Below, one piece after another: positions 4,969 through 61,486 of a stretch of DNA of 64,000 nt; positions within the stretch are counted from its first letter, which is position 1, and each line of letters opens with the position of its first letter. Origin of the DNA: Patescibacteria group bacterium. Lineage in GTDB: Bacteria; Patescibacteriota; Patescibacteriia; UBA2591; UBA6264. Location of the stretch: contig JAQTOB010000004.1 in NCBI GenBank assembly GCA_028713575.1, forward strand, positions 5,250 through 69,249, in the 5' to 3' direction. Under the pieces are notes generated by a model. It saw nothing but the letters and a program-made list of their open reading frames with translations. It was not told the DNA's origin and did no database searches. A program made the translations under genes and the position numbers.

Positions 4969-6471
4969 ATGAACGCGATAAAAGCAAAAAAAGAAAAAAT
5001 ATTTTTTATTATTATTTTGGTTTTAGTTTCTGTTTTTTTTGTATTATTGCCCCGTTTCAGTTACGGCCGGCTGTCAGAAAGCCCTTATAGTTCTTTCTAC
5101 ACCTATCCCCTGCACACCGACGAATGGCAGCATTATACTATTAGCATGTCTTTGGAAGAGAATTTTTTTCACCCCCACGTTTTTTATTATGAGAATTATG
5201 AGCCCTTTATTGACGGCAGTCCCTTTTTTCATGAAATTATTTTTTTTGCCCAAAAGTTGGGTCTTTCTCCAGACAAGTTCTTTGTTTTGCCCATTTTACA
5301 AGGAATTTTTTTTGTTTTGATTTTTTTCTTTTTTTTAAGTTTATTTTTTAACCCTTCAGTTAGTTTTATTGGCAGTTTGTTGGTTTTTTCCCTCCAAAGC
5401 GATGTTAGGATTTTAGGGTTGGTATTTTTTAAGCCCTTTGTTTTGGGTTTTTGTTTTCTTCTCTTGGCCCTTATTATTTTCCAACGGAAAAAAAGAGTTT
5501 CTTTTGCTTTTGTGATTTTCAGCTTGATGTCATTTTTTTGTTATCCGCCCTTAGTTTTGTTATTAATAATTTATGTTTTTGTTTATGGTTTGGTCAACAA
5601 AAAAATTGACAAAAAATATTTATTTTACATTGGTTTTTTGATTGTCCTGGCATTACTCTTCGGCTTAATTATTTTTAAAAATAACGCTTCTTTTTTAATG
5701 GATAAAATAATTTATAAAGGTTATCTTAGCGGTCAAGACAGGACCGCTGTCCCTGAATATTTAAATATCTTTTTAGTTGTTTTAGGGTTGCTAGGATTTT
5801 TAAAGACGATAAAAAAGAAAGAATTTTGGCCTTGCCATAGTTTGTTTATTTTTTTGTTGCTGGATTTTATTTTAGCCACGATTTTTAGATTTAGTTTGGG
5901 TTTTCACTATATGAGGATTATTTATTTTATCGGCATTTTTCTCGGCGTTTATGTTGCTTATATTTTAGTCTATATTTTCAAAAATTTCAGTTTTTTTTCA
6001 AAAAGAAAAACATTGGCCACAGTTTGCCTTTTTTTGATTGTTCTGGCGATTTTGGTTCCTAATTTTAAATTTTATGCCCGGTCCCTTTCCTCCTTTAATC
6101 CGGCTGTTCATGCTCGGTGGTTGGGTCAAAATAATTTGCAGGTTCTGGAATATTTGAAAGAAAGAAACAATAAAGAGGCAAAACTTTTGCATCTGCCTTA
6201 TTTGGGCGCGGTGATTACTCCCTTGACCGGGTTTAAGGCTACGGCCGTATTTTCCGCTTTTACCGGAGGGAAAAAAAATAAATATGACGAGATATTCAAC
6301 TCTCCCAAGGACTGCCAAAAAATAAAAGAAATTATTGACGAAGAGAATTATAATTTATTATGGATGAAACGAAAAATTGATTGCCCTTTTTTAGAGTTAA
6401 TTTTTAACAATAATTTCAATTTTATTTATCAATATAATCCAACAATTTATAATTTGGGGCCTGGGGTCTGA
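4969..6471 (+). CDS. Polytopic membrane protein, possibly a GT-C-fold (ArnT/PMT-like) membrane glycosyltransferase
   Basis: 500 aa with more than 10 predicted TM helices. A DE motif lies in the first extracytoplasmic loop (HTDEW). It is adjacent to the glycosyltransferase cluster. The stop codon lies inside a repeat element. Confidence 0.3.
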   Translation: MNAIKAKKEKIFFIIILVLVSVFFVLLPRFSYGRLSESPYSSFYTYPLHTDEWQHYTISMSLEENFFHPHVFYYENYEPFIDGSPFFHEIIFFAQKLGLSPDKFFVLPILQGIFFVLIFFFFLSLFFNPSVSFIGSLLVFSLQSDVRILGLVFFKPFVLGFCFLLLALIIFQRKKRVSFAFVIFSLMSFFCYPPLVLLLIIYVFVYGLVNKKIDKKYLFYIGFLIVLALLFGLIIFKNNASFLMDKIIYKGYLSGQDRTAVPEYLNIFLVVLGLLGFLKTIKKKEFWPCHSLFIFLLLDFILATIFRFSLGFHYMRIIYFIGIFLGVYVAYILVYIFKNFSFFSKRKTLATVCLFLIVLAILVPNFKFYARSLSSFNPAVHARWLGQNNLQVLEYLKERNNKEAKLLHLPYLGAVITPLTGFKATAVFSAFTGGKKNKYDEIFNSPKDCQKIKEIIDEENYNLLWMKRKIDCPFLELIFNNNFNFIYQYNPTIYNLGPGV

Positions 6472-6605
6472 CCCCCTAAACATCCCTTCTAAAATTGGGT
6501 TGGGGCCTGGGGTCTGACCCCCTAAACATCCCTTCTAAAATTCGCATCAATAAAGGGTTATAGAGCAAAAATTTCAATTTGGTGCGATTTTGATTGATTT
6601 TAATA
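6455..6605. repeat. MITE-like element copy, with two ggggcctggggtctgaccccc heads and one conserved tail tttcaatttggtgcgattttgattgatttt
   Basis: Sequence identity to the elements at 4592, 29248 and 37236-37930. Confidence 0.75.
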
Positions 6606-6787
6606 TCGCAGCAATATTGCAGGCGAAACTTGTAATATTGACACTTAATATGAGTCCAAGATATTGCCCTTTACGATTTTTCCGAATGGTTTTATAATAT
6701 AAACATAAATAATTAATAAAATTTATAGACCCTGTTAGAAATTTTAAGTAAATAGAATTTTTAATCGGGACCAAGAGAACAAAATTT

Positions 6788-13920: not shown

Positions 13921-13933
13921 GTATTATTGTTTT

Positions 13934-13988
13934 GAGAACAAAAATATCCCGGATTAACCGGGATATTTTTGTTCTCAGTAATTTTTTA
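13934..13988 (+). terminator. Intrinsic terminator. A perfect 19-bp stem (gagaacaaaaatatcccgg / ccgggatatttttgttctc) with an attaa loop is followed by a T-run. It lies between convergent genes.
   Basis: Inverted repeat read directly, with tttttt at 13983-13988. Confidence 0.7.
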
Positions 13989-22710: not shown

Positions 22711-22752
22711 AAAATGACCTGCCAAAAAAGACCAAACCCGCCAAAAACCAAA

Positions 22753-23412
22753 ATGTCTCTTAAAAATTCACTTAAAATTTACATTAAAGATGGAATCTAT
22801 CACATCTATAACCGGGGCATAGAAAAAAGAAACATCTTTTTAGATGAACAGGATTATAAAGTATTTTTATATTATTTGAAAAGTTATTTAACACCAGTTG
22901 GTCAACAAGAAAAACCGCCCTATGGTATTGATAGAAATGTTTTAGATTTCACCCTTTATAAACAAATCCGGCTTTTTTGTTTTTGTTTAATGCCAAATCA
23001 TTTTCATTTAATGATTCAGCAATTAACTGAAAGGGCGATTATAGAATTTATGAAGCGTTTAACTAACGCCTATGTAAGATATTTTAATGAAAAGTATGAT
23101 CGCAAAAGTATAGGTCCGCTTTTCCAGGGCAAATATAAAGCTGTGTTAATAAAAAAAGAACAACAATTCTTATATTTGCCGTATTATATCCATTTTCACA
23201 ATCCGGAAGGATTATATAGAAACAAGAGAGATGCTGAGTTAATCAAAAAAATACAAAATTATCCTTGGTCAAGTTATGCCGATTATTTAGGTAAACGTGA
23301 CACCAAATGGATTTATAAAAAAGGAATAATGGAGCAATTTATGGAAACAGAAGAAATAAAGCCGGAGACGGAAACTACGCGCAAAATTTTAGGTTCAACG
23401 GTTATAGATTAA
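22753..23412 (+). CDS. Y1 HUH transposase (IS200/IS605 TnpA-like; REP-associated tyrosine transposase-like)
   Basis: YHIYNRG is present. The HUH motif is CLMPNHFHLM. The candidate catalytic Tyr lies in LFQGKYKAVLI. The gene is flanked on both sides by related palindromes. Confidence 0.65.
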   Translation: MSLKNSLKIYIKDGIYHIYNRGIEKRNIFLDEQDYKVFLYYLKSYLTPVGQQEKPPYGIDRNVLDFTLYKQIRLFCFCLMPNHFHLMIQQLTERAIIEFMKRLTNAYVRYFNEKYDRKSIGPLFQGKYKAVLIKKEQQFLYLPYYIHFHNPEGLYRNKRDAELIKKIQNYPWSSYADYLGKRDTKWIYKKGIMEQFMETEEIKPETETTRKILGSTVID

Positions 23413-26232: not shown

Positions 26233-27666
26233 ATGAATTTAAATCAATTAACAATTTTATCGGTTCATCAGGGTTTAAAAAAGAAAGAATTTTCCAGTCA
26301 AGAATTGACTAAAGATTGCTTAACAAAAATAAAAAAAAGCAATAAAGAAATTAATGCTTTTATTACTGTTTTAGAAAAACAAGCTTTAAAACAAGCCGAG
26401 GAAATTGATAAAAAAATTAAAATTCAAGGCGTGGATAATTTTTTAACTGGTATTCCCCTGGGAATTAAAGACAATATTTTAATTCAAGATGTTGTTTGTA
26501 CTGCTGGTTCAAAAATTTTAGAAAATTATCAGGCTATCTATGATGCCACGGTAATTAAAAAATTAAAAAAAGCTGGAGCGATTTTTTTAGGCAAAACCAA
26601 TCTTGACGAATTCGCCATGGGTAGCTCTACTGAATCGTCTGCCTTTGGTCCGACCAAAAATCCTATTAATTTATCTTATATTCCCGGTGGTTCTTCTGGC
26701 GGTTCTGCCGCCGCAGTCGCGGCTAATATGTGTTTGGCTGCCCTTGGTTCTGATACTGGCGGTTCTGTCCGTCAACCGGCGGGATTTTGTGGCGTCGTTG
26801 GACTAAAACCAACCTATGGGCGGGTTTCTCGCTATGGCTTGATTGCCATGGCTTCTTCTCTTGATCAAATCGGACCATTGACCAAAAACATTGAAGACGC
26901 GGAAATTTTATTTAAAACAATTAAGGGCAAAGATGATTTTGATGCCACTAGCGTTGAGGTAAAAGATGAAGACCCAGGGAAAATGAAAACAAAAAAAATA
27001 AAAATTGGCCTACCTAAAGAATATTTTATCCAAGGGCTTGACTCGCAGATAAAGGAAGTCATCAATAACTTAATTAAAAAATGGCAGAAGCAAGACGCTG
27101 AATTTATAGAGGTTAGTTTGCCCCACGCATCGCTCGCTTTGGCTTGCTATTATATTATTATGCCCGCGGAAGTTTCTTCTAATTTGGCTCGTTATGACGG
27201 CATTAAATACGGATTTTCCACCAATGGGGAAAATAAAAATTTATTAGATGTTTATTTAGATTCTCGAACCACGGGTTTTGGCGAAGAAGTCAAACGCCGA
27301 ATTATGCTCGGCGCCTATACTTTGTCTGCCGGCTATTATCAGGATTATTATTTACAGGCGCAGAAAGTAAGAACTTTAATCAAAAAAGATTTTGAAAAAC
27401 TTTTTCAAGAAAAAGATATAGATTGTTTATTAACCCCAATTAGCCCAACTTTGCCCTGGAAATTGGGAGAAAAAATAAACAACCCTTTAAGTATGTATTT
27501 GGCGGATGTTTATACCGTTTCCGCCAATCTGGCTGGTTTGCCGGCGCTTTCATTGCCTATTGGTAAAATTGATGATTGGCCGGTCAATGGGCAATTAATC
27601 GGTAATTATTTTCAGGAAAGCAAAATTCTGCATCTCGGAAAAATGATTGAAAAATTAGGACTTTAA
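26233..27666 (+). CDS. gatA: Glu-tRNA(Gln) amidotransferase subunit A (amidase signature family)
   Basis: The amidase signature is GGSSGGSAAAVAANMCLAALGSDTGGSVRQPAGFCGVVGLKPTYGRVSRYG. Confidence 0.95.
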   Translation: MNLNQLTILSVHQGLKKKEFSSQELTKDCLTKIKKSNKEINAFITVLEKQALKQAEEIDKKIKIQGVDNFLTGIPLGIKDNILIQDVVCTAGSKILENYQAIYDATVIKKLKKAGAIFLGKTNLDEFAMGSSTESSAFGPTKNPINLSYIPGGSSGGSAAAVAANMCLAALGSDTGGSVRQPAGFCGVVGLKPTYGRVSRYGLIAMASSLDQIGPLTKNIEDAEILFKTIKGKDDFDATSVEVKDEDPGKMKTKKIKIGLPKEYFIQGLDSQIKEVINNLIKKWQKQDAEFIEVSLPHASLALACYYIIMPAEVSSNLARYDGIKYGFSTNGENKNLLDVYLDSRTTGFGEEVKRRIMLGAYTLSAGYYQDYYLQAQKVRTLIKKDFEKLFQEKDIDCLLTPISPTLPWKLGEKINNPLSMYLADVYTVSANLAGLPALSLPIGKIDDWPVNGQLIGNYFQESKILHLGKMIEKLGL

Positions 27667-27718
27667 GGTTTTTGGAGACCAGGTCTCCAAAAACCTTTTG
27701 GAGACCAGGTCTCCAAAA
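27667..27718. repeat. Two adjacent REP-like palindromes (ggtttttggagacc-a-ggtctccaaaaacc and ttttggagacc-a-ggtctccaaaa) directly after the gatA stop codon
   Basis: Perfect inverted repeats. The same family clusters around the second Y1 transposase gene at 58931-59843. Confidence 0.8.
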
Positions 27719-29244: not shown

Positions 29245-29465
29245 TTTGGGGGCTGGGGTCTGACCCCCTAAACAGACCCCCCAAAACCATTATTAGATTT
29301 GCAAAGTAGAACGATTTTTCTAATTTGGTGCGATTTTGTTGAATTTATTATATCATACCACTACAACTTCTTGCAGGTCAGACCTGCAAGAAGTCTCTGC
29401 AAGAAGTACTGCAAGAAGTAGGGCAAAAATTTTGATTTGGTGTAATTTTGACGGATTTTCATTTT
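29245..29465. repeat. MITE-like element copy (ggggctggggtctgaccccc...tttctaatttggtgcgattttgttgaattt) with an appended hairpin cttcttgcagg-tcaga-cctgcaagaag and half-site echoes
   Basis: Sequence similarity to the elements at 4592, 6455 and 37236. The hairpin is at 29367-29393. Confidence 0.7.
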
Positions 29466-29548
29466 TTTAATTTTAACTAAATTTATTTTGGTAATCTCTC
29501 AAAAAATTTAACCCAAGTTTTATTTTTTTGAGTTTATGTCTCTTAAAT

Positions 29549-30403
29549 ATGTTTGATTTGTTTTTTAATTTTTTACATAATTTTAAACCCCAGCCGATTA
29601 TTTTACGGCTGGGATTTTTTAATGTCTATTGGTATAGTTTTTTAATTGTTTTGGGCCTTGTTTTAGGTTTGATTTTGGTTTTTAAATTGGCTCCGCGATT
29701 TAAAATAAAAAAAGAAAATTTGGAAGATTTGATTTTTTATTTAATTATTGCTGGTTTTATCGGCGCCAGGCTTTATCATGTTTTTTCCGAACTTCCTTAT
29801 TATTTTAAAAATCCGTTAGATGTTTTTAAGGTTTGGAACGGAGGTTTGGGGATTTACGGTGCGATTATCGCCGGTTTGCTTATTTTGTTTTTTTCCGCAA
29901 AAAAATATAAGATAAAATTTTTTGTTTTGGCTGATTTATTTGTGCCTGCTTTGGCTTTGGGTCAGGCTATTGGTCGCTGGGGAAATTATTTTAATCAGGA
30001 AGTTTTTGGCAGGCCGACTGATTTACCTTGGGGAATTTTTATTGAAGCGGCTAATCGGCCATTTGAGTTTTTTTCTGAACAGTATTTCCACCCGACTTTT
30101 TTATATGAATCAATCTGGAATTTTTTGATTTTTTTTGTTTTAATCTTAATGATAAAATCTAATTTTTATAGAAATTTTTTTGGAGAAAATTTTTATGGAG
30201 GTCGGACCTCCAAAGAAAACCGTTCGGGTGTTATTTTTGGATTTTATCTTATGTTTTATTCCTTCGGCCGGTTTTGGCTGGAGTTTATAAGAATTGATTC
30301 CCAACCAATGCTATTGGGACTGAGGCTGGCGCAGGTAATCTCAATTTTAATGTTTATTGTCGGCGGAGTGATATTAATGAGAAAATATAAAATATTAGAA
30401 TAA
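29549..30403 (+). CDS. lgt: Prolipoprotein diacylglyceryl transferase
   Basis: The Lgt signature is GQAIGRWGNYFNQEVFGRPTDLPWGI. It is a multi-TM protein. The ATG at 29549 (MFDLFF...) is preferred over the TTG at 29528. Confidence 0.9.
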   Translation: MFDLFFNFLHNFKPQPIILRLGFFNVYWYSFLIVLGLVLGLILVFKLAPRFKIKKENLEDLIFYLIIAGFIGARLYHVFSELPYYFKNPLDVFKVWNGGLGIYGAIIAGLLILFFSAKKYKIKFFVLADLFVPALALGQAIGRWGNYFNQEVFGRPTDLPWGIFIEAANRPFEFFSEQYFHPTFLYESIWNFLIFFVLILMIKSNFYRNFFGENFYGGRTSKENRSGVIFGFYLMFYSFGRFWLEFIRIDSQPMLLGLRLAQVISILMFIVGGVILMRKYKILE

Positions 30404-51994: not shown

Positions 51995-52026
51995 AATTAA
52001 GCCGAAATTCGGTTTAAATAAAGAAA

Positions 52027-52600
52027 AGTCCTCCTATTTTTGAGGGGGTCTTTTCTTTGTTTTGAGACTCGGTTTCCCGTTGGAAACCGAGTCTCTTCAC
52101 TTCTTGGTTGTTTTGAGACTCGGTTTCCCGTTGGAAACCGAGTCTCTTCACTTCTTGGCTTCCTGTTTAAAGTTCGGTTTCCCGCTTTGCTTCGTAGCGA
52201 GCTTTGCTCTGCTACTGGGGCTGGAAGCCGAACTTCTTTATTTTATAAAAAGCCACTTGGTCTTTAAAGTCCTCCTATTTTTGAGGGGGTCTTTTCTTTG
52301 TTTTGAGACTCGGTTTCCCGTTGGAAACCGAGTCTCTTCACTTCTTGGCTTTGATACTTTGGCGCAATCCCTGATTATGCCGGCTATGGCCGATTTAGCG
52401 CAATAAAGCTTCTATTATATATACACTTTGTTTTGAGACTCGGTTTCCCGTTGGAAACCGAGTCTCTTCACTTCTTGGCTTCCTGTTTAAAGTTCGGTTT
52501 CCCGCTTTGCTTCGTAGCGAGCTTTGCTCTGCTACTGGGGCTGGAAGCCGAACTTCTTTATTTTATAAAAAGCCACTTGGTCTTTAAAGCCTTTTTTATA
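52027..52600. repeat. Complex tandem repeat region built on a 32-nt perfect hairpin gagactcggtttcc-cgtt-ggaaaccgagtctc (4 copies) plus a twice-repeated 104-bp structured segment and duplicated leader tcctcctatttttgagggggtcttttctttg
   Basis: The hairpin copies are at 52064-52095, 52115-52146, 52305-52336 and 52435-52466. The 104-bp segment is at 52157-52260 and 52487-52590. Confidence 0.85.
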
Positions 52601-52689
52601 GGGAGGTTTGACCCCTTCCTCTTGTTATAAATATTATAAATGTTATAATAATTTTCTACTATTTTCGTAAAATTTTCGTATTTCGTAGC

Positions 52690-53220
52690 ATGTTCCACCT
52701 CAGAGAGAAAATCCTTTTTCATCAAATTAAAAACGGTGACGAACAGGCCTTCACCGTCTTTTATAATACCTATAAAGACAGAATTTATCGTTTTATTTAT
52801 TTTAAAGTTTCTGATCGTGAAAAAGTTTATGATTTGGTTTCCGAAGTTTTTATTAAAATATATGATTATATTAAAGAGGGGAATGACATTGATAATTTTC
52901 AAGCTTTTTTGTATAAAATCGCTCGTAATTTAGTAATAGATTTTTATCGCACTAAAAAAGAGGAAATTTCTTTAACTGATGCGCCGGAAACAGTTTCTCC
53001 TATCAATTTAGAAAAAGAAGTGGGAGATAAGGTTGCCGTGGAAAACGTCAAAAGATACCTTAATAAAATTAAACCAGAATACCGCGAAGCGGTTCATCTT
53101 CATTTTTTTGAAAATTTTTCTTTTTCCGAGATTGCGGATATTATCAATCAATCCGAAGGCAATGTTAGGATTAGGGTTTATCGCGGCATTAAGCAATTAA
53201 AAGAGGTTTTAAGGGGTTGA
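52690..53220 (+). CDS. RNA polymerase sigma factor, ECF (sigma-70 group 4) family
   Basis: Region 2 is FYNTYKDRIYRFIYFKVSD...DLVSEVFIKIY. Region 4 is FSFSEIADIINQSEGNVRIRVYRGIKQLK. Confidence 0.8.
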   Translation: MFHLREKILFHQIKNGDEQAFTVFYNTYKDRIYRFIYFKVSDREKVYDLVSEVFIKIYDYIKEGNDIDNFQAFLYKIARNLVIDFYRTKKEEISLTDAPETVSPINLEKEVGDKVAVENVKRYLNKIKPEYREAVHLHFFENFSFSEIADIINQSEGNVRIRVYRGIKQLKEVLRG

Positions 53221-53760
53221 ACCCCTTCTATATGTAGGGGTTCAACCCCCTCCCCAATAATCGCCATCATAAACTTTTTACACAGGAACTTTTTACACAT
53301 TTTTACACAGGACATTTTTACACAGGTTGAACCTGTGTAAATTTTCATTTGCATATTTCACAAAACAAATCCAAAATCCAAAACCCAAATTTTCATAATC
53401 ACTTGGGAACCGAGTTTCTAAAAAGCAAGAAAGCAAGAGATGGATTCTACGCTAGAAACTCGGTTTCCCGTTGGAAACCGAGTTTCCTTCTCCCCAATAA
53501 TCGCCATCATAAACTTTTTACACAGGAACTTTTTACACATTTTTATACAGCACATTTTTACACAGCACATTTTTATACATTTTTACACAGGTTGAACCTG
53601 TGTAAATTTTCATTTGCATATTTCACAAAACAAATCCAAAATCCAAAACCCAAATTTTCATAATCACTTGGGAACCGAGTTCCTAAAAAGACATTTTTAC
53701 ACAGGTTGAACCTGTGTAAATTTTCATTTGGCATTTAGTCATTTGATATTGATTTGACAT
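53213..53760. repeat. Repeat region downstream of the sigma gene. It has palindromes ggggttgaacccc and ggggttcaacccc, a roughly 200-bp direct repeat (two copies), and a compensatory variant of the 52-kb hairpin (gaaactcggtttcc-cgtt-ggaaaccgagtttc).
   Basis: Direct repeat copies at about 53246-53440 and 53490-53690. ttacacaggttgaacctgtgtaa palindromes occur at 53313-53341 and again in the second copy. The variant hairpin is at 53454-53485. Confidence 0.8.
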
Positions 53761-58100: not shown

Positions 58101-58928
58101 AAAGACACCGAAGAAATTTTGACCATCAGCGTTGATTTGGCGGATATCAATCAGGATATCGCCACCACTGGTCGCGACTTGAAGGTCGGCCTTGATTGTT
58201 CCGATGCTGACGACGATTGTGAAGCCATCGGCACCTCTTCAACCGTTTTGGGCGATGCTGACAGTGAGTTAAGCGATGTGGACGGCAACTCAATGTATTT
58301 GAGAAAGTCTCGTCCGACCGTTGCTGCTGCTTCTTTACCATCAAGTCAATTAATTAATGGAACCAGAGTCATTAACAAGTTCACTGTTACAGCTGATGCT
58401 GCGGGTGCCATCACCCTTAAGAAATTCAGTTGGGACGTTAATGTGAGCGACTACAATACTGACGGTTTATCTGTCACTAATTGGAGAGTTTATGACACTG
58501 GTAATTCAACCGCTTTGGCTGGTCATTGGTCAAACGCTACAACCACCAGCACTTCTGGCGCGATTGCCGTTACCAACGGAGCCAAGGTTATGATTGTTGA
58601 ACTTGATGACGAAATCGAAATTGCTGCCGGCACTAGCAAAACATTTGAGTTAAAAGCAGATGTTTCTAGCGCTGCCATTTACGATTCAGTCAGCTCAAGC
58701 TTACTCAACGATGATAACGACACAGCGGTTAGAACCGGCGGTTTAGCCGACCATGATACCCAAGGTGTCCAACTTGAAGGCAGTGTTGCCGTTGATTTCC
58801 TCTGGTCTGATAAGGCCCGGGGTGCCAACCACACTGATTCATACCAGACAACCTATGATGACTGGACCAATGGTTACTTGATTGACGTGTTGCCGACCGA
58901 AACTGTCTCATTGATCTATCCTAGCTAA
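55179..58928 (+). CDS. Large secreted surface protein with repeated Ig-like/invasin-like beta domains. Its N-terminal roughly 190-aa domain is homologous to the C-terminus of 47252-51994.
   Basis: Signal peptide MNKLKKLIALGTTVSMLLSLVVVMPARA. Repetitive T/S/A-rich beta-strand modules (LTVTAD...FEL.AD.S) are present. GC content is visibly higher than in the surrounding DNA. Confidence 0.55.
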   Translation: MNKLKKLIALGTTVSMLLSLVVVMPARAVTIADGDLVMTTSSSAVYYIQGAYKRVFPHYNVYLSWGYPSDFSTVKTVSTSELASYTDANPMPFRDGALFRGTAASLGDKDATAVFYVENAQLRPVLSEQVYQALFKDTDWAKVTWVPDDLLSKFNYEMGSNLSSSSTHPDGSLVKYSNSDQIYVIESGKKRAISATAFDANRYSVANVITIDSSETYANGSAVTGVESSLLTPGWLGTTVASGALTASLYNPPAGATIPNKATNVSLLKVKLTAGNTAATISGLTFKRSDLGATTDWDTLYVYEGNDCITPNGRSLSSDDHTVEFAVNISVPANGYKVLELRGDLKAGGATANNRHAFQITEVATSATVSGLPLTGNVMIVGSVNVTTAIISAGTLPINPSVGAQDAEIANFKIQAGDNDITFSQIVFTFAGTMSRGDITNLNLYLLGETESLASVSGIASNDTFTLTLDSPYVITKGQTKNFVLRADLTGEVGRTLEMYMEETYHLAVSDNEYNFGAAVTNSFGNADVTALTLQGGEITMADNGPLAGNVAQNQQDVVLTKIAITADRSIEVRKLFVTLASDVAGAANPTDGVSDLRIKDEDTGQTLMTPTSAVGTTISGNYLMTGTFNLTANTTRNLVITVDIGVDAGDALDGKYVSADLKMVDRSDDSVADNSSGEEAQMRDSSTGDWILTADIIPISVSGEHQTIQTPALTTAVASTPVSGLTSIKGASKVDGIGIVFTAGDASAVSLRQFSVRAYVNSAATFLATNEDTSPTGEVTTVYLYDDSGTLLASKTLSATSANHDYGAATFSGLTVTIPAGENKKLTVKFDVNSTLEAARYVAFGIDDASITAYDSEGSTVDVTGDLNFYASDLSVPTHYTYLDTGGALTMAQDPSTPDSDIVLAGATDVIMSKIKFTATKEDWTVSKLRVEMATSANESSVSKVKISYPGGSATGTLSGGFAKFTGLNWLIEKDTEEILTISVDLADINQDIATTGRDLKVGLDCSDADDDCEAIGTSSTVLGDADSELSDVDGNSMYLRKSRPTVAAASLPSSQLINGTRVINKFTVTADAAGAITLKKFSWDVNVSDYNTDGLSVTNWRVYDTGNSTALAGHWSNATTTSTSGAIAVTNGAKVMIVELDDEIEIAAGTSKTFELKADVSSAAIYDSVSSSLLNDDNDTAVRTGGLADHDTQGVQLEGSVAVDFLWSDKARGANHTDSYQTTYDDWTNGYLIDVLPTETVSLIYPS

Positions 58929-58930
58929 AT

Positions 58931-59293
58931 TCTTTGGAGACCAGGTCTCCAAAGATAGATATAACGTTTGACTGAAGCGCGTGTCCGCCTCTGGTGGACT
59001 AAAATCAGTCCATCTGGAATAATATAATAAAAATATTAGTTCCATCGCCAAAATCCCCTTAACAGGGGATTTTGGCTTTTAAAAGGGCGCAATACCTGCC
59101 TATCGGCAGGTTTTGGAGACCAGGTCTCCAAAAAAAGTCTCCAAAAAAATCTTGCGAGGTTTTTTAGTTTTAGAGACCAGTTTTTTGGAGACCTGGTCTC
59201 CAAAAAACCCTGCGAGGCCTTTTAGGGATTGTTTTTTTTAAATTAAAATATTATAATAATTGGAGACCTAATTTGGAGACCTGGTCTCCAAAT
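58931..59293. repeat. Cluster of at least 4 REP-like palindromes of the ttggagacc-N-ggtctccaa family (58931-58955, 59111-59133, 59181-59207, 59273-59293) plus half-site fragments, upstream of Y1 transposase paralog 2
   Basis: Perfect inverted repeats. Same family as 27667-27718. Confidence 0.85.
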
Positions 59294-60028
59294 TACTCCA
59301 AATTAAAAAATAGCCTTATGAGAAAAATTAAATTTGTTAATGATGAGTATTATCATATTTATAACCGTGGAGTAGATAAACGGATTATTTTTGAGGATAA
59401 AGATGATTTAAAAAGATTTTTCCAAAGTATGAAAGAGTTTAATGTTTTAGAGCCAATAGGTAGCATTTATGAAGCGGTTCGTTGTAAAACTTTTAGAGAA
59501 ACTTTTGGAGACCAAGTCTCCAAAAGTTTTACAAATAATGAAAGATTGGTTGATTTTATTTGTTACAATTTACTTCCCAATCATTATCATTTCATTTTAA
59601 AACAGTCAGTTGAAGATGGAATTAAGAAATTTATGCATAGACTCGGATTGGGTTACGCAATGTTTTTCAATCAAAAGTATAAGCGCAACGGTTCATTGTT
59701 CCAAGGACCGTTTAAGGCGATTCATATTGATTCCGAAGCTTATTTGCTTCACTTGAGCGCTTATATTAATTTGAATCATAGGGTTCATTCTAAATTTGAG
59801 GATTTTGGAGACCTTGAGGATTTTGGAGACCTGGTCTCCAAAAGATATAAATCAAGCTGGGAGGAATATTTGGGATTAAATCAAGAAAAATTTTGTCAAA
59901 AGGAAATTCTTTTAGACCAATTTGACACAATAAAAAGCTATAGAGAGTTTGCCGAAGAATCATTAAAAGGAATAAGAGAAAGAAAGGAAATAAAAAAGTT
60001 TCTTTTAGATGATCAAATAATTGGTTGA
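59273..60028 (+). CDS. Y1 HUH transposase paralog 2 (IS200/RAYT-like). It carries in-frame REP-palindrome insertions and a Phe at the position aligned with the catalytic Tyr of paralog 1.
   Basis: YHIYNRG is present and the HUH motif is LLPNHYHFIL. GPFKAI aligns with GKYKAV of paralog 1. REP copies are at 59501-59527 and 59821-59843 inside the ORF. The start may instead be the ATG at 59318. Confidence 0.55.
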   Translation: METWSPNYSKLKNSLMRKIKFVNDEYYHIYNRGVDKRIIFEDKDDLKRFFQSMKEFNVLEPIGSIYEAVRCKTFRETFGDQVSKSFTNNERLVDFICYNLLPNHYHFILKQSVEDGIKKFMHRLGLGYAMFFNQKYKRNGSLFQGPFKAIHIDSEAYLLHLSAYINLNHRVHSKFEDFGDLEDFGDLVSKRYKSSWEEYLGLNQEKFCQKEILLDQFDTIKSYREFAEESLKGIRERKEIKKFLLDDQIIG

Positions 60029-60064
60029 TTGACAAACGGTTAATTTTCTGATAAAATTTGGCAT

Positions 60065-61486
60065 ATGAAGATTAAAATTATTGCCATTTTTATTTTTGTA
60101 ATTTTGCTGTTTCCGGGCAAGTTATTTGCTTCTGCCGCGCCGATTGAAGAAAAATACTGGTGTGGCAATTTTGTTTCTTCTGGTTCTTGCGACCGTGAGC
60201 GAAGCAATGTTGACTGGGAAAATAAAACTATGGTTTTAAATAAAAGAGACGACAATACTTATTCATCTTCCAGTATTTGTTGGACCAATGAAATAAGGTT
60301 TGGAAAACATATTCACTCCATTACGAATTTAAGTGGCGTCTATTCTTCGCCCGGCGGGACAAGCGTTAAAGCTTTTTTTCGTTTTGGCGATGCGGAAGAA
60401 GAATATCTTTTAAACTGGGGAGGAATTTATGAACCCAAAGAGGCGTTTAAAAGTTTTCGCCTGAAAATATTTCTTGCTTCAAATAATTCTGCCGTTTCTC
60501 CCAATGTTTCTCAGATTTGTTTTAAAGTAAGATTGCAAGACCGCTCAATTGAAGGAATTAAAAGTCGGGACAGAACGAGGGTTTCTAATTTGGAAAAGAC
60601 TAAAAATGTTTTAAAAAAATATTATGAAGATTTTAATCAATATCCTGTTGTTGATATTCAGCCAACCGAGAAACAGCGTCAATGGGATTTATTAAAAAAT
60701 ACTTTATCTTCTGCTTCTTTTAATCATTACGAAAATTATACTCGTGGTTTTATTGATCAGCCCGAAAATGTTAGTGAGGATTATCAATATGGTTATTTAA
60801 CCAGTTCTCTTGGTCTGTATTATCTTCTTTGGACAAAATTGGAAGATATTAATTCCGAGCGTTTTGAAAATTCTTGGACCGGAGAAATTTTAAACGTGGA
60901 TTGTTCTCCGCCGATTTATTGCATTTATTCTCGGGCCGATGCCGACCCAGAGGTCTTGTTAAAAGAATTTAATAATAAACAAAAAAAGGAAAATATTGAG
61001 GATGCGGAATTTATTAGAACGCCGGACGATTCCAAGGTTTGGCTAAAGACAAAAAATCGCCGCGTTTGGCTAAGAACCCCGGAGATTTTTAATCAAGCTA
61101 ATGGGAACTGGGATAAAATAACAATAAAAAACACCCTGGCAGATGTTCCTTTATTAAAATTCATTAAATTTAAAGACAAAGAAGAGATATATTTAGTTAG
61201 CGAGAAAGGGTTTAAAAGGCACATGTCTAACAGTCAAATCCTTAATTTTTATGGGCAAATTTCAGAAATTGTTGTTTTTGATAATGAAAAAATTATTAAT
61301 CTTTTACCCGAAAACCGTTTAATCAAAGGCAAGGGACTGTCAGAAGTCTATTTTCTTGACCAAAAAATAAAAAGATGGATTACTTCTCCTGAGGTTTTCG
61401 CAAAAATGGGATTTGATTGGAATGAAGTAGTAGAAGTGGACCCCCGGGAATTAGATTATTATCCGGAAGCAACCCCGATGTTTTAG
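60065..61486 (+). CDS. Secreted hypothetical protein
   Basis: Signal peptide MKIKIIAIFIFVILLFPGKLFASAAP. 473-aa ORF. Confidence 0.4.
   Translation: MKIKIIAIFIFVILLFPGKLFASAAPIEEKYWCGNFVSSGSCDRERSNVDWENKTMVLNKRDDNTYSSSSICWTNEIRFGKHIHSITNLSGVYSSPGGTSVKAFFRFGDAEEEYLLNWGGIYEPKEAFKSFRLKIFLASNNSAVSPNVSQICFKVRLQDRSIEGIKSRDRTRVSNLEKTKNVLKKYYEDFNQYPVVDIQPTEKQRQWDLLKNTLSSASFNHYENYTRGFIDQPENVSEDYQYGYLTSSLGLYYLLWTKLEDINSERFENSWTGEILNVDCSPPIYCIYSRADADPEVLLKEFNNKQKKENIEDAEFIRTPDDSKVWLKTKNRRVWLRTPEIFNQANGNWDKITIKNTLADVPLLKFIKFKDKEEIYLVSEKGFKRHMSNSQILNFYGQISEIVVFDNEKIINLLPENRLIKGKGLSEVYFLDQKIKRWITSPEVFAKMGFDWNEVVEVDPRELDYYPEATPMF

Follow-up and report, generated by a model that had tools for sequence, protein, structure and literature searches.

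A predicted RAYT-type transposase gene in Patescibacteria with copies of its own hairpin upstream and at two family-wide in-frame slots

The stretch of DNA analysed here, 64,000 nucleotides of contig JAQTOB010000004.1 from the assembly GCA_028713575.1 of an ultra-small Patescibacteria group bacterium (the window), contains a gene for a predicted Y1/HUH transposase of the RAYT type (REP-associated tyrosine transposase, where REP is a repetitive extragenic palindrome), and one short palindrome is repeated both upstream of this gene and, in frame, inside it (Table 1). The window has a G+C content of 36%, and relatives of its genes come from Patescibacteria (candidate phyla radiation, CPR) assemblies. 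We place the true start of the transposase gene at the ATG at 59318, not at the TTG at 59273; the protein then begins with MRKIKF, which is kept in orthologs.

The 9-mer TTGGAGACC occurs 17 times in the window (0.31 expected), and the full palindrome TTGGAGACC-N-GGTCTCCAA, with up to two mismatches, occurs eight times (0 expected). Four complete copies, with cores starting at 58934, 59113, 59185 and 59273, lie within the 390 bp upstream of the gene, in agreement with an earlier sequence-only reading of this DNA, which had placed at least four palindromes there. The last of the four ends 26 nt before the ATG and folds, as DNA, at −9.7 kcal/mol. This palindrome is the window's version of a hairpin class in which the base, TTGG...CCAA, is conserved and an apex of 4–5 bp is variable. 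The foot has the form (C/T)TTGG...CCAA(G/A), and the tetranucleotide GTAG/GTGG is not found. Two further copies in tandem lie far from the gene, and this distal pair is conserved in the conspecific contig L087.

The protein encoded by the window gene passes the Pfam model Y1_Tnp (26.6 bits, cutoff 23). Its 3,534 database homologs are from Patescibacteria and, where they have been named, are called transposase or RayT. We obtained an AlphaFold2 (AF2) model with a pLDDT (predicted local distance difference test) of 79, and a Foldseek search with it returned 4er8_A, the RAYT-REP complex, as the best PDB match (E 1.1e-5), followed by the TnpA proteins of ISDra2 and IS608. A single-sequence phmmer search against the PDB gave only spurious matches (IntI4, an oxidoreductase), and a profile was required. 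The order of elements in the model is canonical, with the HUH motif on a strand at residues 89–96, a second strand at 133–137 and, directly after it, a helix at 140–151 that carries Y149, while residues 170–235 form an extra helical region of about 65 aa. Neither this protein (20.7 bits) nor the other transposase of the window, which we call paralog 1 (33.5 bits), reaches the cutoff of 80 set for the NCBIfam equivalog NF047646 (REP_Tyr_transpos). Paralog 1, encoded at 22714..23412, is the sole paralog in the window; it is 34% identical and has a different hairpin. The description of our gene as a second Y1/HUH paralog with its own palindrome family stands. No near-identical extra copies of the transposase gene are present in the 64-kb window.

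The sequence-only reading had matched GKYKAV of paralog 1 to GPFKAI of the window protein and had seen in this a Tyr-to-Phe change at the catalytic position of a possibly dead enzyme. The correspondence is real, and the residue concerned, F132, is non-catalytic. Alignment to proteins of the IS200 and RAYT types (ISDra2 TnpA and 4ER8) places the catalytic tyrosine at Y149, not at position 132. With hhalign, H89/H91 fall on H59/H61 of the E. coli RAYT (whose sequence we checked to be that of 4ER8 chain A), F132 on the Phe of WQPRF, Y149 on Y115 and N153 on N119, and LSAY149INLN corresponds to VDY115IYIN. A profile of 42 family members aligned to ISDra2 TnpA brings PNHYHF onto the HUH strand and 'GSLFQGxYKAI' onto 'GNLWNPSYCIL', so that the GPF/GKY position comes to lie before the catalytic helix. 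At position 132, 56 of 71 orthologs have Phe and 15 have Tyr. H89, H91, Y149, N151 and N153 are invariant in all 71 (71/71), and H89, H91 and Y149 are invariant also in the 42-protein family alignment. Judged from its sequence, the window gene encodes an intact RAYT-type Y1/HUH single-strand DNA transposase, whose activity is predicted and whose large family is specific to Patescibacteria.

Two palindromes of the same family as the extragenic copies lie inside the open reading frame (ORF) and keep the frame, as had been reported. The core of the one at slot 1 has a single A/A mismatch at its apex, which leads to its reading as a 14-bp stem with a 3-nt loop; it folds as DNA at −12.9 kcal/mol (z −7.1), and the slot-2 hairpin at −8.2 kcal/mol (z −4.4). 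The two slots bracket the HUH-to-Tyr core, one standing before the HUH strand and the other after the helix of the catalytic tyrosine. The peptides that the hairpins encode, at residues 63–72 and 160–173, are the only segments of the model with pLDDT<50. The second insertion was thought to add about 10 aa relative to paralog 1. The extra length is real, but it is mostly due to a lineage-specific 18-nt tandem duplication of TTGAGGATTTTGGAGACC, whereas the hairpin itself is shared with orthologs; the duplication is absent from ortholog proteins and present in the conspecific contig L095.

We fetched 79 genomic loci, all from Patescibacteria metagenome-assembled genomes except for some obviously mislabelled records, and scored hairpin occupancy with a strict filter in 71 ortholog genes. 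A perfect or near-perfect hairpin is present at slot 1 in 41 of these genes, at slot 2 in 44 and at both in 27. Many of the genes scored as having neither still encode LGxxxxK remnants or low-GC hairpins. TTGG stands in the same codon phase in 83/85 slot hairpins, and in an alignment of 42 homologs every protein has a short peptide at the same two positions. The stems in the slots are perfect and often extend to 14–19 bp, into the coding flanks. The slot peptides resemble each other within one protein and differ between proteins: one has KFGHSVSKLF and KFGHRVSKLL, another KFRSSAPKLF twice and a third KLGSSTP twice. At least 6/7 residues are shared between a protein's own two slots in 64/120 homologs, compared with 33/600 in a cross-protein control. 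The density of perfect palindromes that contain GC pairs is 1.70 per kb in RAYT coding sequences (CDS), compared with 0.055 in other long ORFs and 0.92 in intergenic DNA, and several of the 'other ORF' palindromes belong to family genes that the RAYT motif missed. On this sequence comparison the slots are old, their position and phase being common to the family.

The age of the slots bears on the suggestion, made before, that the transposase had been colonised by the repeats it mobilises and was caught at a rarely observed stage. The repeat family is indeed the gene's own, but the colonisation is neither recent nor rare, since the slots are family-wide and old. It had also been said that the palindromes would not count as insertions if they were ancestral and present in all orthologs lacking extragenic copies. 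Only half of this is what we find: the slots are family-wide, yet the orthologs have matching extragenic copies.

How closely the copies match became clear when we compared the variable 5-mer at the promoter, slot 1, slot 2 and the 3' flank within each gene. The promoter-proximal copy equals slot 1 in 31/35 genes (2.4 expected by chance), slot 2 in 29/40 (2.3 expected) and the 3' flank in 29/37 (2.4 expected), and the two slots equal each other in 19/27 (1.8 expected); 19 genes have a hairpin at each of the four places, and in 10 of them the four are identical. As an extragenic palindrome, an in-CDS core is found at 111 per Mb in its own locus and at 3.0 per Mb in other loci. Of the in-CDS cores, 69/85 have one or more extragenic twins, and 85/107 twins lie within 200 bp of the gene. 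Some genes hold two or three cores, such as the one at L028, with GGAAGC upstream and in slot 1, GGAGAC in slot 2 and GGCGGC downstream.

Between genomes the apex behaves differently. The cores do not track the protein tree, and even the most similar pairs of proteins, at 87%, 87% and 83% identity, differ in their cores; apical cores include GGGGACC in L001 and GGCAGGTG in paralog 1. The coding sequences at L021 and L028 are about 88% identical at the nucleotide level, with the differences clustered in apical hairpin pairs and the CTTGG/CCAAG base kept. In 42 aligned slot-2 hairpins, the TTGG/CCAA base is nearly invariant and the apex hypervariable, apical pairs have changed on both sides in 12–21 of the 42, and there are almost no G-T pairs. 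The core GGGAAC is found in slot 2 of L005 and in slot 1 of L006, which movement of a cassette could explain, although we do not rely on this case because the repertoire is small and G-rich. Read from these comparisons, the copies in and around one gene evolve in concert, while the apex turns over fast between genomes.

The hairpin in front of the orthologous genes has a further feature. A motif TT[GA]GNN-17-TAnnnT ending no more than 12 nt from the ATG is present in 33/68 orthologs, at a distance of exactly 6 nt in 23, while the chance of the arrangement is 0.0025 per gene and 0/79 in-CDS hairpins show it. The left arm of the ortholog 5' hairpin supplies the −35-like TTGGNN and the remainder makes up the 17-nt spacer in front of the −10 box, so that, by its consensus spacing, the hairpin looks like a sigma-70-type promoter that would drive a leaderless or near-leaderless mRNA. 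Examples of hairpin-promoters in 5' flanks are L021 5300–5340, L028 1512–1554 and L037 1367–1411. For the window gene itself, a promoter and terminator scan flagged no promoter, and the TTGTTT of a possible promoter that we picked out by eye matches at only 3/6 positions. This possible promoter unit, at 59229–59257, is duplicated in L095, and if it is a promoter, the last upstream hairpin lies in the leader. The only terminator-like site in the region is an unrelated hairpin at 59047–59076 with a 13-bp stem (GCCAAAATCCCC-TTAA-CAGGGGATTTTGGC) followed by a T-run, which probably ends the transcript of the upstream surface-protein gene.

The exact window REP was found in 17 metagenome stretches, five of them from a metagenome that also holds conspecific contigs. 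One contig, L095, covers the locus of the window gene in a conspecific strain; over the length of the gene the two are 98.6% identical. L095 has the 18-nt duplication and the two internal hairpins in unaltered form, with a 6-nt in-frame duplication (TTACAA) directly following slot 1. Upstream of the gene (L095 1000–1290, equivalent to window 59080–59270) there is an extra unit of about 88 bp consisting of a REP and promoter-like sequence, and this region also has two hairpins of another type, TTGGTGGC-TCG-GCCACCAA. Comparison of the gene with this one strain therefore gave no internal gain or loss of REPs, while the upstream cluster differs, which indicates that the flanking REPs are in flux and the internal copies are fixed.

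The gene stands between those of a surface protein, which has a weak match to an Fn3-like domain that falls below the Pfam cutoff, and of a 473-aa protein without a Pfam match, and no tnpB partner was found among the neighbours. The order surface protein, RAYT, 473-aa protein is kept in L001, L004, L005 and L095 and partly in L006. This conserved synteny points to vertical inheritance in the clade of the window, as expected of RAYTs rather than of insertion sequences. At the syntenic position in L006 (14728–14940) there is a 66-codon N-terminal RAYT fragment that ends inside the slot-1 hairpin and is followed by the promoter of the downstream gene; 8 kb from this fragment, at 5939..6610, there is an intact paralog that has the same core. 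Two other N-terminal RAYT fragments (L037 1186–1401, L029 475–700) stop at a hairpin or a cluster of hairpins just in front of an intact gene, which suggests repeated replacement or nesting at hairpins.

In-frame copies of the window REP are not confined to the transposase gene. They occur in genes of several other functions (Table 1), where the repeat is read in all three phases (LETRSPK, FWRPGLQK, FGDLVSK). Some of the REP-bearing contigs among L080–L096 share a sample with conspecific contigs. In the window, lgt (29528..30403; Pfam LGT, 248 bits) has an in-frame hairpin at 30196–30212, TGGAGGTC-G-GACCTCCA, which encodes YGGRTSK and is read in the phase of the RAYT slots. On the sequences compared, the RAYT gene stands out by its density of hairpins, by two slots of fixed position and phase and by internal copies that match the hairpins of its own promoter and 3' flank. 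Paralog 1 has same-class TTGG...CCAA hairpins with a different core in its flanks and none inside the gene. Its neighbours on the two sides are a Laminin_G_3 surface protein and LigA.

Other explanations of the palindromes as DNA or RNA features were considered and set aside. They do not look like transcription terminators, as T-runs precede them, A-runs follow them and a trailing T-run is lacking. A coincidence with the BsaI site (GGTCTC) was rejected because the core differs in every genome. RNA-level structure is less likely to be the selected feature, given that the stems are purely Watson-Crick with almost no G-T pairs (a pattern to which our detection by Watson-Crick pairing contributes) and that identical copies lie in untranscribed flanks. 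An Rfam scan of 58800–60200 gave nothing near any gathering score, and its matches to miRNA precursors merely reflect paired REP copies.

Palindromes of further types are present elsewhere in the window. Five copies of a 32-nt palindrome, GAGACTCGGTTTCC-CGTT-GGAAACCGAGTCTC, lie at 52025–53486 within direct repeats of 83 and 162 nt, where all ORFs are small. At 53250–53730, TTTACACAGGTT-G-AACCTGTGTAAA occurs three times in 114-nt direct repeats, beside short-repeat arrays resembling TTTTTACACAG. The intergenic segment 4531–4924, upstream of the gene at 4969..6471, contains a direct repeat of 109 nt as well as ATCTACGAGG-CGAGA-CCTCGTAGAT in four copies. Long perfect palindromes are found in an intergenic gap at 13933–13977 (20-bp stem) and at 29366–29394 (ACTTCTTGCAGGTC-A-GACCTGCAAGAAGT, with a half-copy adjacent).

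Table 1. Coordinates of the transposase gene, its predicted catalytic residues and the associated repeats; positions are those of the window unless a contig handle (L) is given.
Feature	Location	Strand	Remarks
Extragenic REP copy 1	58931..58955 (core 58934-58952)		3 bases past the stop of the upstream surface-protein gene
REP copies 2 and 3	59111..59208 (cores 59113-59131, 59185-59203)		half-copies 59137-59144 and 59170-59178; degenerate tandem unit
Possible promoter TTGTTT-17 nt-TATAAT	59229..59257	+	upstream of the last hairpin; read by eye
Half-copy (59260-59268) and REP copy 4 (core 59273-59291)	59260..59295		promoter-proximal / 5'-leader hairpin
RAYT-like Y1/HUH transposase gene (paralog 2)	59318..60028	+	236 aa plus stop; ORF/translation
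Slot-1 hairpin	59499..59529 (core 59505-59523)	+	14-bp stem, 3-nt loop; encodes ETFGDQVSKSF
HUH motif H89-Y90-H91 (PNHYHF)	59582..59590	+	aligned to LPEHMHC of E. coli RAYT and HUH of ISDra2 TnpA
F132 (GPF), non-catalytic	59711..59713	+	aligns with the Phe of E. coli RAYT WQPRF (WQPRFWEH)
Y149, predicted catalytic Tyr (LSAYINLN)	59762..59764	+	hhalign opposite Y115 of 4ER8; on helix 140-151
18-nt tandem duplication, TTGAGGATTTTGGAGACC x2 (EDFGDL x2)	59796..59831	+	overlaps the left arm of the slot-2 hairpin
Slot-2 hairpin	59821..59843 (core 59823-59841)	+	perfect 11-bp arms, one central base; encodes DFGDLVSKR
Two tandem distal REP copies	27665..27716 (27672, 27698)		31 kb off, just past the stop of an amidase (GatA-like) gene
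Paralog 1 5' hairpin, TTGGCAGGTG-CT-CACCTGCCAA	22676-22715		19-bp stem, overlaps the ATG
Paralog 1 3' hairpin, TTGGAAGGTG-AG-CACCTTCCAA	23426-23447		
Window REP in frame	L091 9726		UvrB
Window REP in frame	L094 69		UvrA-like ABC ATPase
Window REP in frame	L085 26		PriA
Window REP in frame, two copies	L088 1329/1353		MiaB-like radical-SAM enzyme
Window REP in frame	L086 (433/463), L090, L083		glycosyltransferases (GT1, GT2, PMT)
Window REP in frame	L082		Dus

The system invites comparison with REP/RAYT pairs, also known as REPtrons, such as E. coli TnpA_REP (4ER8) and the Pseudomonas REPIN-RAYT systems. It shares with them the Y1/HUH fold (4er8_A being the closest structure) and a single gene, inherited vertically at a syntenic locus, that is flanked by species-specific palindromes of its own; these occur elsewhere in the genome as well, here as two distal copies in the window. 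As in those systems, the genome has a further paralog, which is associated with another type of palindrome. A conserved GTAG/GTGG tetranucleotide 5' of the hairpin foot is a feature of classical REPs (PMC3733652, PMC6006769). The window system differs in having no such guide, with a TTGG...CCAA foot and perfect, short stems; in a protein that scores far below the REP_Tyr_transpos cutoff and has the C-terminal helical extra of about 65 aa; in the low number of dispersed copies; and, for the family, in having the cognate hairpin in the promoter and at two fixed in-frame slots. Elements of the IS200/IS605 type (IS608 and ISDra2 TnpA) have the same catalytic domain and motif order and, as recognition elements, subterminal hairpins on both sides of the transposase gene, a placing that is seen in part of this family. 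Subterminal hairpins are found only on the 5' side of the window gene, while 37 family genes have hairpins in both the promoter and the 3' flank, 29 of them with the same core. Unlike those elements, the family has hairpins in the ORF and conserved synteny, with no tnpB and no sign of multiple copies in the window.

Intragenic REPs and Rickettsia palindromic elements (RPEs) are short palindromic repeats that are tolerated in frame, often in DNA-repair genes (PMC3733652). UvrB, the UvrA-like ABC ATPase and PriA of the related contigs are comparable hosts of the window REP. The internal hairpins resemble intragenic REPs and RPEs in being read through in frame in a permissive region of an intact ORF, here in the only segments with pLDDT<50. 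The difference is that those elements stand in unrelated host genes at idiosyncratic positions, whereas the present hairpins are hosted by the gene for the transposase, keep their two positions and their phase across a phylum-level family and match the copies in the flanks. In our literature search, the coverage of which was incomplete, we found intragenic REPs and REP-flanked RAYTs, no hairpins inside RAYT genes and none in Patescibacteria; as far as this search shows, the layout of hairpins upstream and at two in-frame slots has not been described before. By analogy, the sites lac O2 in lacZ and gal OI in galE give examples of a regulator whose site is present both at the promoter and inside the coding sequence that it controls. 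The RAYT sites differ from these operators in being hairpin palindromes for a single-strand DNA enzyme, and control of transcription by the RAYT is speculative here.

We consider it fairly probable that the gene is an intact RAYT whose internal hairpins, present throughout the family, are homogenised by copying and act as binding sites or master copies. In the family, the hairpin occupies up to four fixed places, namely the promoter, the two in-frame slots and the 3' flank. On this account, its copies would be homogenised by hairpin-to-hairpin copying, either through RAYT-catalysed cleavage and rejoining at the conserved hairpin base or through recombination or template switching between nearby palindromes. 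The internal copies would persist because the loops that they encode are disordered, and they most likely would serve as extra binding sites for a dimeric RAYT, which could regulate its own gene or bring them into synapsis with the hairpin of the promoter, or as linked master copies for the REP family, or in both ways.

Several observations weigh against this account. Dispersed copies are few, only two distal ones being present in 64 kb. The window gene is without a hairpin on its 3' side and without the canonical promoter arrangement, there being no −10 box 17 nt after its last hairpin. Neither slot is filled in 13/71 genes under the strict filter, and some slots are truly empty; such patchy occupancy means that the hairpins are not essential. 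In-frame REPs in many unrelated genes imply that in-frame tolerance is general to these repeats. Our hairpin detection demanded Watson-Crick pairing, so the paired fraction is partly built in, though the pattern of variable positions is not. Finally, the statistics of the alignment to the E. coli RAYT are weak, with E 0.15 for hhalign and E 0.3 for the profile against the PDB, although these sequence-to-PDB alignments agree with each other.

Some of the same observations would also be expected if the hairpins were passive passengers that do nothing. A RAYT that prefers to act in cis would make its own gene the commonest landing or conversion site, the disordered loops would tolerate the insert, and later renewals would swap hairpin for hairpin and so keep the frame. 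We regard this, the main rival, as possible but rather unlikely. Besides the patchy occupancy with its truly empty slots, it is favoured by the hypervariable slot peptides, which are modelled as disordered, by the many unrelated genes that tolerate the same REP in frame in any of the three phases, and by the differences in gene-adjacent REP clusters between near-identical strains. Against idle passengers stand a phase that is constant in 83/85 slot hairpins when all three are viable in other genes, stems that stay perfect and often extend to 14–19 bp into the coding flanks, a palindrome density about 30 times that of other ORFs, and slots that bracket exactly the catalytic core and have a matching copy built into the promoter. 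Selection on the peptide is barely credible as the cause. In that case the repeated [FL]G-x3-[SPT]K would have been kept for a function such as paired DNA-contact loops, and the palindromic DNA would be incidental; the symmetric positions of the two peptides around the catalytic core would fit. Selection at the protein level cannot yield reverse-complementary codons, though, and the middle residues vary freely while the DNA arms co-vary. The same DNA also lies in non-coding flanks and, in other genes, in other phases, and both segments have pLDDT <50.

The remaining two explanations concern the status of the gene. It could be part of a mobile element of the IS200/IS605 type, with the outer hairpins as its left and right ends (LE/RE) and the internal ones as scars of nested insertion. 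The fold and catalytic residues are those of IS608 and ISDra2 TnpA, outer hairpins bound the homology between L021 and L028, whose flanks are unrelated, N-terminal fragments abut hairpins in L029 and L037, and the L006 copy is truncated at the slot-1 hairpin. We nevertheless find a mobile element improbable: synteny is kept across at least four related genomes of the window clade, the only paralog in the window is 34% identical, there is no tnpB, the window gene is without a 3' hairpin, and nested insertion leaves unexplained why most family members have the same two slots in the same phase. A dead transposase, inactivated by Tyr-to-Phe replacement and recently colonised by the repeats it once mobilised, would fit the Tyr that paralog 1 has where the window protein has Phe, as well as the identity of the palindromes in the ORF to extragenic ones. 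This is very improbable, as Phe stands at that position in the active E. coli RAYT and in 56/71 orthologs, Y149, HUH and N153 are invariant, and the slots are occupied family-wide and unchanged in the conspecific strain.

An intact RAYT with homogenised internal hairpins that act as binding sites or master copies thus remains the reading that we prefer, and one can speculate further that the matched hairpins form a self-recognition circuit. In such a circuit the RAYT would bind the hairpins of its own gene, for autoregulation or for synapsis across the segment that encodes the catalytic core, and the gene-resident copies would be master templates that seed REPs. We hold this to be doubtful, yet it would have clear consequences. 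If it is true, the identity of a REP family would be encoded in the transposase gene and could be re-programmed by swapping an apical cassette of 4–5 bp, and the RAYT would mediate hairpin-bounded deletion or exchange in its own gene, of which the truncated copy in L006 is a possible example.

For annotation, the practical consequence is that genes of this RAYT family should not be labelled degenerate on account of 'repeat insertions'. The family gives a direct handle on how RAYTs and REPs stay matched over long periods and on where new REP variants originate. It offers thousands of natural genes in which an enzyme and up to four of its own hairpins lie within about 1 kb. Because the small apex is variable even between close relatives, these genes make up a data set for the specificity code between protein and hairpin, and the gene together with its own hairpins is a simple construct with which to study autoregulation, cis-preference and hairpin exchange by a Y1 transposase.

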